The position numbers and the translations under genes were made by a program. A stretch of DNA of 57,054 nt from Candidatus Spyradocola sp. (GTDB taxonomy: Bacteria > Bacillota > Clostridia > Christensenellales > UBA1750): NCBI GenBank assembly GCA_034113365.1, contig JAXEXP010000083.1, positions 1-57,054 of the forward strand, in the 5' to 3' direction. Below the pieces are notes generated by a model. That model was not told the DNA's origin, searched no databases, and saw nothing but the letters and a program-made list of their open reading frames with translations. Positions 3,759-50,590 of this stretch are shown piece by piece. Within the stretch, counting starts at the first letter, position 1. Every line of letters starts with the position of its first letter.

Positions 3759-3867
3759 GACCTCATCCGTCTCGTGCCGCAGAAGCGTCACGAGCCACCT
3801 TCCCCTGAGAGGGGAAGGCTTTTGGATGCGCGCGTTCCTCCATAGGCTTCCCCTTGAGGGGAAGCTG
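3759..3867. repeat. inverted pair of REP-like family A units (forward variant 3759-3820; truncated reverse copy 3845-3867)
   Basis: ACCTCATC...CCTTCCCCTGAGAGGGGAAGGC and GGCTTCCCCTTGAGGGGAAGCTG match the repeat at 18160, 21218, 33490, 50503. Confidence 0.8.
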
Positions 3868-4165
3868 CAGCCTGTCGACAAAGTCGACAGGCTCGAAAAA
3901 GATGAATACTCATCTTTTTCGAATTGCAGAAAAATTCGCGCACGGCCTTGCCGCACACGAATTTTTCTGTATCGGAAGCGATTTTCCATCTGCCTATGGA
4001 TTAAGAACGGTGGAAACAGAGACTTCGTCCAGCTCATTCTTTCCTAGCGTACAGAAAATCGCTCCTCGGCGGGGTACACGCCCCCGCCTGCGGATTGAAG
4101 ATGAAGGGGCTGCGGCCCCTTCATGCATCCCCGGGGAGCACATGCCTGTTTTTTGACAGGCTGTA
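3866..4165. mobile_element. non-autonomous MITE-like element with terminal inverted repeats
   Basis: left TGCAGCCTGTCGACAAA vs reverse complement of right end TACAGCCTGTCAAAAAA; interior made of stacked hairpins; no convincing ORF. Confidence 0.6.
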
Positions 4166-4209
4166 CCGCCGTTTTCCCCTTGAAACAGGGGGAAAACGGC
4201 GGCTTTTTC
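4165..4209. terminator. hairpin terminator between convergent genes
   Basis: CCGCCGTTTTCCCC...GGGGAAAACGGCGG followed by CTTTTT. Confidence 0.65.
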
Positions 4210-18129: not shown

Positions 18130-18213
18130 GGTGCGCTGGGGGATGGCTGGTGCGTGACGGACACCTCATCAGTCGCCTGCGGCGACAGCTTCCCCTCAAG
18201 GGGAAGCCAAAGG
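18130..18213 (+). repeat. REP-like family A unit (core 18160-18208)
   Basis: GACACCTCATCAGTCGCCTGCGGCGACAGCTTCCCCTCAAGGGGAAGCC, two hairpins. Confidence 0.9.
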
Positions 18214-18272
18214 ATGGTCTGCGTTATGCGATCAGGAGGTATCCTTTGGATAGGATTGTATAGGAGACATTT

Positions 18273-21082: not shown

Positions 21083-21187
21083 AGGAACTCCTTGTTTTTT
21101 GCGAGAGAACAATGTCTCTTCTTCATTTGTATTGGATACGAAAAAGATACAGCTTGGGGCATCGAAGCGGGGCTTGGGGCTGTTTTG

Positions 21188-21267
21188 GTGCGTCTGGGGG
21201 TGGGGTGGCAGTTTACGGACACCTCATCAGTCGCCTGCGGGCGACAGCTTCCCCTCAAGGGGAAGCC
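21188..21267 (+). repeat. REP-like family A unit (core 21218-21267)
   Basis: one-base variant of the 18160 core. Confidence 0.9.
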
Positions 21268-21465
21268 GTAGGGTGCGCATTGCTGCTGACTGCATGAGTT
21301 GGCTGTTTATGCTGAACAATGAACGTTCACCATGCAAAAAGGTGGTGTTAGAACTGCATGTGATGTGATCCCTTGCGGCCGGGGTTGGGGTGCGGTGACG
21401 GGTGCTTCATCGGTCGCCTGCAAAAGGAAGGATGAGGCACATAGCCCGGATTCGCGCTTCCTTAA

Positions 21466-21755
21466 GGCTCCCCTTGAGGGTTTACCCAGAGGGGCGAAGC
21501 CCTGAAGGTCGAGCGTGTCGGAATAAACAGTCCGGTGGACTGACCTACGGAGGGGCGCAGCCCTGAAGCATGAGCGTTTCGGAGGGAACAGTCCTGTGGA
21601 CTGTTGCCGGAGAATAAGCCATGTGGAACACCGGAGCAGTCCAAAGGACTGATTCGGTGCGCAGATAGATGAAGCCGACCGGAACACCGGAACAGTCCGA
21701 AGGACTGTTTCGGTGCGGAGCGGGGAGCTGCCGGCCTTCGGCCGGCGGAAGGGTG
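21466..21755. mobile_element. nested composite: reverse REP A split by element B' (21481-21542 + 21665-21720), itself split by element B (21546-21664)
   Basis: internal duplication of GGAGGGGCGNAGCCCTGAAG and GGAACACCGGA..CAGTCC..GGACTG..TCGGTGCG; homologous to 30801-30923 and 50326-50453. Confidence 0.75.
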
Positions 21756-21815
21756 GCGCTGCAGCTCTGCCAAACGGATAATGACGTCAGTGGCTCAACA
21801 TGAAGTCCAAGGGGA

Positions 21816-23171
21816 TCATTTCAGGAAAAAGCGGAGGAGCTTTTCCTTTTTCTTCGTATAGGGGTGGTAGCGGATGGGCAGGTCCAGGAAGGTGGACTTG
21901 TCCAGCACGCTCTTTTCGTGGGAGAAGGTGTCGAAGGAGCGCTTGCCGTGGTAGGCGCCCATGCCGGACGCGCCCACGCCGCCAAAGCCCATGTGGGTGG
22001 TGGCCAGGTGCACCACGGTGTCGTTGACGCAGCCGCCGCCAAAGGACAGGCGGCGCAGCACCTCGCGCTGGGCGGGCTTGGACTCGGTGAACAGGTAGAG
22101 CGCGAGCGGCTTTTCGTCGCCGCGGACGAAGGCGATCATGTCCTCGAGGGTGTCCATGGGGAGGATGGGCAGGATGGGGCCGAAGATCTCCTCCTGCATT
22201 GCGGGGGCGGTGCGGTCGCGCACCTCGATGAGGGTGGGCTCGATGCGCAGGCCGTCGGTTTGCCCGCCGGCGAGGATCTGGGCGCCGTCCAGCAGGGCGG
22301 TCAGGCGCTGGGCGTGTTTTTCATTGATGATGTGGGGGTATTCGGGGCTTTGCAGCGGGTGCTCGCCCAGAAAAAGCGCGATGTACTTGCGCATGGCGGC
22401 GACGAGGGCGTCCTTTGCGCCGCGCTGCACCAGCACATAGTCGGGCGCGACGCAGGTCTGGCCGGAATTGAGCAGCTTGCCGAACACGATGCGCTTGGCG
22501 GCCAGGTCGATCTTGGCGTCGTCCAGCACGAGCACGGGGCTCTTGCCGCCCAGCTCGAGGGAGACGGGAGTGAGGAACTGCGCAGCCTTTTCCATCACGA
22601 GGCGGCCGACGGTCTTGCCGCCGGTGAAGAAGATGTAGTCAAAGCGGGTGTCGAGCAGCGCGGCGTTTTCGGCGCGGCCGCCCTGCACCACGCGCACCAG
22701 CTCGCGCGGCAGGCAGTCGCTGAGCAGGCGCTCCATGGCCTTGGCGGTGTGGGGCGCGTAGTTGGAGGGCTTGAGCACGACGCAGTTGCCCGCGGCGATG
22801 GCGCCGATGAGCGGCTCGAGTGACAGCTGCAGCGGGTAGTTCCACGGGGCCATGACCAGCACCAGGCCGTAGGGCTCGCGGTAGATGCGCGAGACGGCGT
22901 GGAACTGCGCCAGCGGCGTGCGCACGCGGCGGGGCCTGGCCCAACGCCGGAGGTGGCGGATCTGGCAGCGCAGCTCGTCGAGCACCAGGCCGACCTCGGT
23001 CATGTAGCCCTCCATGGGGGCCTTGCCAAGGTCCAGCTCCAGCGCGGCGAGCAGCTCCGCCTCGTGGCGGACGATGCCCTGCTGCAAGGCGCGCAGCCAG
23101 CCCAGCCGCGCGTCTGGATCCAGCGTATTGCCTGCGTCAAAGAAGGCGCGCATGTGCGAAAAATCCATCAT
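21816..23171 (-). CDS. aldehyde dehydrogenase (ALDH3-like)
   Basis: APWNYP, FFTGG, LELGGKSP, SGQTCVAPDY, EEIFGP. Confidence 0.95.
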   Translation of the reverse strand: MMDFSHMRAFFDAGNTLDPDARLGWLRALQQGIVRHEAELLAALELDLGKAPMEGYMTEVGLVLDELRCQIRHLRRWARPRRVRTPLAQFHAVSRIYREPYGLVLVMAPWNYPLQLSLEPLIGAIAAGNCVVLKPSNYAPHTAKAMERLLSDCLPRELVRVVQGGRAENAALLDTRFDYIFFTGGKTVGRLVMEKAAQFLTPVSLELGGKSPVLVLDDAKIDLAAKRIVFGKLLNSGQTCVAPDYVLVQRGAKDALVAAMRKYIALFLGEHPLQSPEYPHIINEKHAQRLTALLDGAQILAGGQTDGLRIEPTLIEVRDRTAPAMQEEIFGPILPILPMDTLEDMIAFVRGDEKPLALYLFTESKPAQREVLRRLSFGGGCVNDTVVHLATTHMGFGGVGASGMGAYHGKRSFDTFSHEKSVLDKSTFLDLPIRYHPYTKKKEKLLRFFLK

Positions 23172-30705: not shown

Positions 30706-30785
30706 ATCGTTCTCTCCTCGTCTTTCCGCAGCACCTGGCGGCCGGATAAAATTACGGCAACCACGAAGCTGCCTGTCGGGGGTTA

Positions 30786-30955
30786 AGCTTCCCCTTGAGG
30801 TTCACCCGGAGGGGCAAAGCCCTGAAGCATGAGCGTTTCGGAATGAACAGTCCTGTGGACTGTTTATGGAGAATAAGCCATGCGGAACACCGGAGCAGTC
30901 GGAACGGCTGGTTCGGTGCGGAGGGTGAAGTGCCGCCTTGGGCGGCGATAGGGTG
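30786..30955. mobile_element. reverse REP A variant split by element B (30801-30923)
   Basis: AGCTTCCCCTTGAGG | B | GGTGAAGTGCCGCC-TTG-GGCGGCGATAGGGTG. Confidence 0.75.
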
Positions 30956-30992
30956 AGCCTGTTGGACGTCGCGCTGCAACACCGCCCTGTGG

Positions 30993-31322
30993 CTACTCCT
31001 CCACCCGTCCGATCGATCTTTCGCTGTCAAATCCATCCGGGTACCGCGCGCGCAGCTTGGCCAGGTTGCGCTGCAGCACCTCCTCCAGCGGGACGTCCAG
31101 CGCCCAGGCGGTCTCCGCAAGGTACCAGGCCACGTCGCCCAGCTCCTTAATGAGCCCCTCCCGATCCAGCTCGTGTCCCTGCGCCAGATGCTTTTTTACG
31201 ATGTCTATGGCTTCGCCCGCCTCGCCGCACAGCCCCATCACGCCGTTGATGAGCACGTCGCGCTTGTCCAGCGCGGGATTGAGCGTGTGCAGCGCCTGAT
31301 GCTGATACTCATTCGCCGTCAT
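30993..31322 (-). CDS. MazG-like nucleotide pyrophosphohydrolase
   Basis: GLCGEAGE..DIVKK, KELGDVAWY, NLAKLRARYPDGF. Confidence 0.88.
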   Translation of the reverse strand: MTANEYQHQALHTLNPALDKRDVLINGVMGLCGEAGEAIDIVKKHLAQGHELDREGLIKELGDVAWYLAETAWALDVPLEEVLQRNLAKLRARYPDGFDSERSIGRVEE

Positions 31323-33458: not shown

Positions 33459-33545
33459 GGTGCGTCCAGGGCAGGGCTGGTGCTTGACGGACACCTCATC
33501 AGGCTCCTTCGGGCGCCAGCTTCCCCTCAAGGGGAAGCCAAAGGC
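33459..33545 (+). repeat. REP-like family A unit (core 33490-33539)
   Basis: GACACCTCATCAGGCTCCTTCGGGCGCCAGCTTCCCCTCAAGGGGAAGCC; first stem altered. Confidence 0.88.
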
Positions 33546-33628
33546 TGCGATGCGCTATTCTCTGCATGGTTTTTTGACAGAAAGAGAGCCGACAGCGCAG
33601 TCGGCTCTCGTAGGTGATATGGTTTCGT

Positions 33629-50260: not shown

Positions 50261-50555
50261 TGTGCGTCTGGGGCTGGGCTGGTGCTTGGCAGACGCCTCA
50301 TCAGTCGCCTGCGGGCGTCAGCTTACTGCGCACCGAACCAGCCGTTCCGGCTGTTCCGGTGTTCCGCATGGCTTATTCTCCATAAGCGCTCCACAGGAGC
50401 CCTTATTCCGAAACGCTCATGCTTCATTCAGGGCTTCGCCCCCTCCGTGTAAACCCTCAAGGGGAAGCCAGGGGACTTCTGGGGGTGGGAGGGCGCTCGG
50501 CTGACACCTCATCAGTCGCTGCGGCGACAGCTTCCCCTCAAGGGGAAGCCAAAGG
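50261..50555. mobile_element. REP A split by element B (50326-50453, minus orientation) followed by an intact REP A (50503-50550)
   Basis: GACGCCTCATCAGTCGCC..CAGCTT | B | CCCTCAAGGGGAAGCC next to an uninterrupted copy. Confidence 0.8.
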
Positions 50556-50590
50556 TTGTGCGCCGTTCATACTCTACCGAGGTTGATCAG

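Follow-up and report, generated by a model that had tools for sequence, protein, structure and literature searches.

What is the non-coding unit of about 115 nt that recurs between the genes of this stretch of DNA, and is it kept as a sequence or as a fold? The window (the whole stretch analysed, 57,054 nt) is contig C83 of a draft genome of Candidatus Spyradocola sp. that comprises 2,868,647 bases in 175 contigs, with 63.6% G+C and 93% completeness. The original prediction compared four copies of the unit, here called element B, and proposed that compensatory base changes conserve it as a structure, which acts either as folded single-stranded DNA (ssDNA) of the kind handled by HUH enzymes such as that of IS608, or as a structured RNA. 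The first part of this proposal can be answered plainly: what is conserved in B is a single-strand fold, and not the sequence alone.

The B unit and its fold

The copies of B in the window, their helices, and the modules beside them are as follows.

30808..30922, + strand: B unit, single copy (covariance model 131.4 bits, alignment, fold z-scores)
30812-30815 with 30819-30822, + strand: P1 of this unit
30827-30831 and 30833-30834 with 30877-30883, + strand: P2 of this unit
30837-30839 and 30843-30853 with 30857-30867 and 30871-30873, + strand: P3 of this unit, with a 3x3 GGA/GGA internal loop
30888-30894 and 30896-30901 with 30905-30910 and 30912-30918, + strand: P4 of this unit
30787..30807, + strand: 5' flanking module of this unit, the left arm of an A-type hairpin, then a short leader with an ACCC end
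30923..30957, + strand: 3' flanking module of this unit, a G+C-rich hairpin and a purine-rich tail (delimited by eye)
21489..21542, + strand: outer B unit, 5' part, with P1, the P2 5' arm, and the top of P3, broken off after the P3 loop
21549..21663, + strand: inner B unit, complete and nested in the outer one (covariance model 124.9 bits)
21668..21718, + strand: outer B unit, 3' part, with the P2 3' arm and P4
50327..50445, - strand: B unit with P3 in the form GGGCTCC/GGAGCGC and 4 additional bases following P1 (covariance model 117.7 bits)
50479..50567, - strand: copy of repeat A that lacks B, immediately upstream of the B unit at 50.4 kb
18136-18232, 21194-21279, and 33469-33558, - strand: other copies of A in the window

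Compared directly, 21548-21664 and 30807-30923 share 88% identity, and 30823-30923 shows 89% complementarity to 50326-50426. The 3' module at 30923..30957 resembles the right-hand module that follows other B units (e.g., 21724-21758) and was classed as an "other" 3' context.

Each unit folds into a hairpin P1, a long irregular hairpin P2-P3, and a hairpin P4, whose joints are conserved purine-rich linkers; in the 30808..30922 unit these read GGAG, TGAAG, AGCGTTT, AATAAGCC, GGAAC, and GCGGA. Run on 76 full-length copies from this genome, RNAalifold returned an identical structure with RNA and DNA parameters. The pairings singled out in the original prediction are present as described: GCATG (30827-30831) with CATGC (30879-30883), GGTCG (21507-21511) with CGACC (21676-21680), GCATG with CATGT in the inner copy (one G.T pair), and the listed variants of hairpins 1, 2, and 3. 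Its long-range stem is real as a pairing, but it is not a separate contact. It forms P2, the base of the long irregular hairpin to which hairpin 2 belongs, and it runs on through a bulged A, two G-C pairs, and an asymmetric internal loop into P3.

Larger alignments bear out the claim of structural conservation, with covariation far above slid and shuffled controls. In A1, an alignment of those 76 copies, 92.5% of the 3097 cells of the four-helix structure hold standard pairs, against 29.8-43.0% when the partners are slid by 1-3 columns. Double-sided changes occur in 25 of 41 pairs, and the covariation score of 0.337 (0.043-0.070 when slid) was reached by none of 500 shuffles. A second alignment, A2, holds 38 copies, which come from five further species of the genus and from one species outside it, in a neighbouring genus; it was fitted to the model and is thus biased towards it, and in it 95.6% of cells are paired, 32 of 38 pairs show double-sided changes, and the score is 0.392 against at most 0.057 when slid. 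Plain MAFFT alignment followed by RNAalifold, applied to 23 near-complete A2 copies chosen by hand, recovered P2 and P4 unaided, with 11 of 18 predicted pairs compensated, and missed P1 and P3, two helices of variable length. All such counts come from related copies, so that pair states are not independent events.

The variants themselves are instructive. P2 occurs in this genome mainly as GGTCG/CGACC and GCATG/CATGC, with the minor compensated forms GTCCG/CGGAC, GATCG/CGATC, and GGTTG/CAACC and a few uncompensated ones, and other species add GGCCG/CGGCC, GGCTG/CAGCC, and GGGCG/CGCCC. The GGA/GGA internal loop of P3 is found in 47-48 of the 76 copies; most of the remainder have Watson-Crick pairs of several kinds in its place. 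In other species P1 is extended from 4 to about 10 pairs and P3 is cut to 4-5 pairs, while the linkers GRAG, TGRAG, AGCGTTT, AATAAGCC, GRAAC, and GCGNA stay constant. Since stem lengths vary around fixed junctions, the pattern cannot come from homogenisation of palindromes alone. The most conserved part of B is the internal P2-P3 core, not the ends.

The terminal loops of all three hairpins are triloops: C(GNA)G in 65 of 76 copies for P1, C(NGT)G in 67 for P3, and GAA in 66 for P4. The GNA triloops noted earlier therefore stand, mostly as C(GNA)G. They belong to a class of very stable DNA mini-hairpins, with GCGNAGC described as extraordinarily stable in the available text of PMC13037366.

Copies, modules, and placement

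An iterated nhmmer search of this genome gave 111 B matches, of which 76 span the whole unit. They group into 75 loci, with one match at 52 and two to four at 23, and all are intergenic by the GC3-based gene call of this study (2328 genes, 82% of the genome). A1 served to build a covariance model, which found 90 matches here and 71, 35, 27, 14, and 5 in five of the seven other species of the genus, and none in the other two. The same model gave three weak matches in G009, a species that belongs to a neighbouring genus, none in 11 other genomes of the family, and, under stricter filters, none in 150 further genomes drawn across the order. Judged by these searches, B is a genus-restricted family. 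The three G009 elements (L081, L088, and L095; 1501-1593) keep GGAG, P1, TGAAG, P2, GRAAC, P4, and GCGCA and are devoid of the AGCGTTT/AATAAGCC core; for this reason they may be distant relatives of the family.

No B was found in the phage, plasmid, viral, or metagenome collections searched. The phage and plasmid sets gave no BLAST match, and an exact-pattern scan across the conserved core returned singletons on 11 genome contigs, 16 metagenome contigs, and 1 viral contig, none of which is B by the covariance model, in collections that may omit the genus of the window. Public sequencing runs that hold the stretch are labelled gut, pig-gut, wastewater, and "whole organism" metagenomes. Similarly, Rfam 15, self-cleaving ribozymes included, gave no match at gathering score in the window, only one 15-bit chance match near B, and no match on the B copies of four related genomes.

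Set between other repeat modules, B units stand alone, follow one another in tandem, or are nested. Upstream of the 76 full-length units lie the left arm of A plus leader (40 units, the context type of 30787..30807), a whole A hairpin (4), another B unit placed directly in front (12, tandem, with a period of about 118), the first part of a unit interrupted just past its P3 loop (12, nested), other sequence (7), or a contig end (1). The 3' contexts mirror these, with variable joints to the right-hand part of A. In G003, one locus (L079, G003:C87, 1000-1594) has six head-to-tail units of the short-P3 form with a period of about 100 nt, each with its own stem sequences.

Repeat A is about 95 nt long. 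Its parts are two hairpins, one perfect with the loop TTGA and a second one that covaries, and a tail with TGATGAGGTG, which contains two stop codons and a Shine-Dalgarno-like word. It has 164 matches genome-wide, mostly without B; most B units of this genome are nonetheless embedded in it, and A, wherever it borders B, points the same way with respect to it (the "other" flanks were judged by eye). BLAST finds A almost nowhere outside this species, and in other species B is flanked by different hairpins; B is therefore the older module and the one that the species share. In a tree built from the units, the A-left label requires 16 changes (shuffled mean 25.4), the nested label 8, and the tandem label 11 (shuffled mean 11.4 for both). 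The labels are thus interleaved, and so the contexts were repeatedly re-created or units were swapped by recombination. As to a single ancestor for the nested composites, the inner units proved only weakly clustered, at the 8 changes just given.

The genome holds further repeats. An interspersed repeat of about 305 nt at 3834-4172, beside an A-type hairpin, recurs at 90-97% identity on at least 10 other contigs. There is also an IS5-family insertion sequence (IS) of about 1.16 kb, with a full copy at L146 (G000:C94:21400-23050) that encodes a 323-aa DDE_Tnp_1 + DUF772 transposase and is bordered by a 4-nt duplication, the sole full copy available. All 17 of its ends found, on 15 contigs, lie within an A-type hairpin loop, and relative to A the element points either way: it is an IS that strictly targets hairpin loops.

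Three orthologous loci, compared with sister species, differ by whole blocks of 600-1000 nt, and their intergenic regions grew by such blocks. The murB-rapZ gap measures 24-35 nt in G003, G006, and G007 and 622 nt here, where it contains a MazG-like ORF and B. Similarly, the gap between the NUDIX and aldehyde dehydrogenase genes is 0-30 nt in four sister species and 717 nt here. No clean B-only insertion was seen on comparing filled with empty sites at these three loci. Because they differ by large blocks, unit borders are not readable from them. Inspection by eye of the B unit borders showed no terminal inverted repeat or target duplication.

Some details of these loci deserve recording. The ORF that shares the murB-rapZ gap with B encodes a MazG-family protein of 109 aa (30993-31322, - strand), and a terminator-like hairpin with a T-rich tail sits between the rapZ start and B, on the same strand as the genes (30756-30773, - strand). 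G001 and G002 carry a different insert between murB and rapZ. The 717-nt region (21101-21817) is largely made of repeats, namely A in reverse and then the nested B composite.

With regard to neighbouring genes, the 60 classifiable loci comprise 37 co-directional, 19 convergent, and 4 divergent gene pairs, against 75.3%, 11.5%, and 13.2% of gene pairs genome-wide (chi-square p = 4e-6), so that B is enriched between convergent genes. At co-directional loci B lies in sense 16 times and in antisense 21 times, i.e., without orientation bias relative to the genes, and a look for promoter-like sites at B found none.

Strand, selection, and the preferred reading

As originally proposed, B folds on the strand on which it was first read. 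The consensus energy of the + strand is -101.3 kcal/mol against -92.4 for the other strand with RNA parameters, and -75.2 against -68.4 kcal/mol with DNA parameters. The window copy gives z-scores of -6.3 against -3.1 as RNA and -4.1 against -2.1 as DNA. Across all pairs there are 211 G.U and 30 A.C states; if two nearly invariant G.U sites are set aside, 78 and 30 remain. One G.U site is conserved in 61 of the 76 copies.

Frequent and rare variants behave differently. Among pair states present in at most two copies, 14 are Watson-Crick, 16 G.U, 21 A.C, and 25 other, while the commoner states, again without the two nearly invariant sites, hold about 62 G.U against 9 A.C. The rare states are mostly pair-breaking and show no preference for G.U, and therefore recent, copy-specific changes mostly break pairs. 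Private substitutions number 52, with 27 in the 76 paired columns and 25 in the 39 unpaired columns. They are thus scarcer per paired column, and some constraint on resident copies could account for this. Since the variants that propagated pair and prefer G.U, and the private ones do not, selection seems to have kept the structure of B in multiplying lineages and not in each resident copy, a reading that rests on those 52 substitutions from related copies. A fold that is kept in multiplying lineages while resident copies decay would serve copying, and not a cell function of each copy.

We therefore consider it somewhat better than an even bet (a probability of roughly 0.55) that B is the core module of a genus-restricted, BOX-like repeat family whose fold is needed for copying by way of a folded single strand. 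Species-specific flanking modules, here repeat A, would enclose zero to four B units. The + strand of each unit would fold into three hairpins held by the purine-rich linkers, and this fold would be maintained in multiplying lineages as resident copies decay. The intermediate would be a folded single strand of "+" sense, more likely ssDNA than RNA, and it would be handled by some enzyme, unless the family is now dormant. In short, B looks like a structured, non-autonomous repeat of the selfish type and not like a gene.

For the copied strand, ssDNA is favoured over RNA. The leaning derives from the triloops (mostly C(GNA)G or GAA), from the lack of a promoter-like site, and from the lack of orientation bias with respect to transcription, and it should be read with the caution that comparative analysis does not reliably separate ssDNA from RNA motifs (PMC5737381, in the text available). 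RNA-library contigs from three studies, which are assembled and carry no strand, ends, or level, run from flanking genes into B and cover the flanks too, with no joint removing B at this locus. As they cover B together with its flanks, B is probably transcribed by read-through.

The likeness to BOX is one of build and placement. BOX, known from Streptococcus pneumoniae and S. suis and made of boxA, a variable number of boxB, and boxC, is like B composite, non-coding, and intergenic; both have terminal modules around a variable number of tandem central modules, and in both the central module folds on itself (PMC3049150). Both are also over-represented between convergent genes, an excess reported for pneumococcal BOX, RUP, and SPRITE repeats. 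Neither has a proven mobilising enzyme, and BOX is described as now dormant (PMC3049150). The available text of that study does not contain the word "compensatory" (0 occurrences), and to that extent reports no covariation for BOX. Other features set the two apart. In B the central module is conserved across species while the flanks change, and nested forms occur, unlike in BOX. The boxB hairpin is 45 nt long. It is a single hairpin, whereas B has 115 nt, three hairpins, and conserved linkers.

Other readings and known systems

Could B instead be the substrate of a single-strand copying system that has not been described, either a branched ssDNA handled by an enzyme that is none of the known Y1/Y2 HUH transposases, or a new class of self-processing RNA that spreads as tandem units? 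We regard this as a possibility worth holding, though an unlikely one. The three-hairpin core and its invariant linkers would then be a catalytic or recognition centre. Another known system to set beside B is the integron attC site, a recombination site that works as folded ssDNA, in which structure is likewise more conserved than sequence and one strand is active. Sites of this kind range from 57 to 141 nt, and B falls within that range. An attC site is one imperfect hairpin after a cassette gene, in an array with an integrase beside it. B has a branched fold, and at its 75 scattered loci it lies either way round relative to genes; the genes that flank it, with a median of 342 aa against 298 aa genome-wide, are not short. 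According to the available part of PMC5737381, ssDNA motifs of greater complexity than a hairpin would be rare.

It is also conceivable, if rather doubtful, that B works as a structured RNA in its own right. It could then be a small RNA of many copies, a sponge that binds proteins, or a small RNA that cleaves or processes itself, and it would be made either by transcription at many loci or by processing of read-through transcripts. Covarying stems of variable length beside invariant unpaired linkers are what a functional RNA would show, and GGA-containing linkers stand ahead of each helix. The tolerance of G.U, with its near-invariant site, and the RNA z-score of the + strand fit as well, and the comparative overlap of ssDNA and RNA motifs cited above leaves room for it. 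The units also form tandem arrays, a layout that in other organisms serves the processing of self-cleaving repeats. The library contigs that cover B would agree with this, but having neither strand nor ends they may represent read-through, or DNA. Against an RNA function stand the absence of any Rfam match in this genome or the four related ones, the even orientation relative to flanking genes and the missing promoter-like site, the rare changes that break pairs without favouring G.U, terminal loops that are all triloops and not the tetraloops typical of RNA, and two species of the genus that do without B.

The HUH form of the original prediction, in which an IS200/IS605-type Y1 transposase would cut B out as folded ssDNA and insert it 3' of a short target that is always the same, fared worse, and we now consider it improbable. 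Such a mechanism is established for IS608 (PMC3201880, PMC5027513), and several features of B recall it: the strand-specific fold with GNA triloops, a P1 and a P4 that lie 4 nt inside the 5' and the 3' end of the unit, respectively (the ends being provisional), a TTCAC or TTTAC leader before many units, and units that abut head to tail. However, the enzyme is missing where it would be needed. This assembly has no match to the Y1 HUH transposase family (PF01797), which occurs in two of eight genomes of the genus, intact in G003 and as a fragment in G004, and in none of the species with 71, 35, and 14 copies of B. Next to the PF01797 genes there is no B either, the best scores being at most 18 bits against 24 to 137 for accepted copies.

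The target does not fit any better. The four bases before the unit vary (ACCC, CTAC, GTAT, TTAT, ACAT, AGCT, and others), and no fixed tetranucleotide precedes it. Conservation, as noted, peaks in the P2-P3 core and not at the ends. The strand bias, which for such an element should place the active strand on the lagging-strand template, has if anything the wrong sign: the folding strand is the G-rich strand at 11 of 36 loci with strong GC skew, with 25 in the opposite sense (p = 0.03), and at 24 against 35 of all loci (p = 0.19), with the qualification that the sign of GC skew, used as a proxy for replication, agrees with the gene-strand majority in just 31 of 46 long contigs. The same facts bear on REP/REPIN-RAYT repeats and the IS200/IS605-derived PATEs. 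These share with B a high copy number, an intergenic position, one-strand hairpins, and the lack of terminal inverted repeats or target duplication, but they have one hairpin per end where B has a multi-helix core, and B-rich genomes have neither the Y1 gene nor the fixed flanking tetranucleotide. Of the broader alternative, folded ssDNA or structured RNA, the conserved structure and the strand thus stand, and the specific HUH/IS608 form does not.

A wider search for a partner gene was no more productive. The genome has no TnpB domain (PF07282, PF01385) save one sub-threshold PF07282 match, and no IS110 (PF02371). Reverse transcriptase (PF00078) was found only in G004, and the search for IS91 (PF04986) carries no weight, its control having matched nowhere. 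In this genome the only families found repeatedly next to B are paralogues of the MatE, ABC, response-regulator, and SDR kinds, and the genes beside B at 37 loci in 7 genomes include no recurring family. It is important to remember that in this 93% complete assembly the smallest contig has 2011 nt, so that a multicopy IS of 0.7-1.8 kb, a Y1 element under 2 kb included, could be missing, and the absence of an enzyme is weak evidence.

MITEs such as RUP, Correia, and ERIC, which are mobilised by DDE transposases, are like B small, highly base-paired, intergenic, and non-autonomous, but no terminal inverted repeats or target duplications were found at B. B was also considered as a MITE of the resident IS5-family element and rejected, there being no shared ends save a 6-nt word in the leader. 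That element enters the A loop either way round; B and A always point the same way.

Finally, it is highly improbable that there is no selection on structure at all, with palindrome arms kept alike by intrastrand template switching and B spreading solely by recombination between flanking repeats. P1, P2-P3, and P4 are indeed all local inverted repeats open to templated correction, and B, co-oriented with A and sharing its junctions, could convert A-only sites by homologous recombination, as the interleaved tree labels (11 changes for tandem, close to the shuffled mean) would allow; yet template switching gives perfect palindromes, whereas a bulged A, an asymmetric GT/TAA loop, and a G.T in P4 persist from species to species, a preference of the common states for G.U over A.C is not expected of a strand-symmetric process, species-variable stem lengths beside constant linkers fit it poorly, and A is nearly confined to this species while B occurs in five others with different flanks.

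The preferred reading is accordingly that of a BOX-like core module copied through its folded + strand, and B is best placed in a new family of its own among structured, modular interspersed repeats, specific to the lineage and unusual for its branched fold with conserved junctions. How repeats without a transposase of their own, such as REP, BOX, and ERIC, multiply is a long-standing question, and the B family offers an unusually sharp handle on it, with a defined fold and invariant linkers, a clear active strand, and 0 to about 90 copies among sister species. Its common and private variants, moreover, separate what is needed to spread from what is needed in place. In practical terms, these repeats break up the assemblies of this gut genus and enlarge its intergenic regions.
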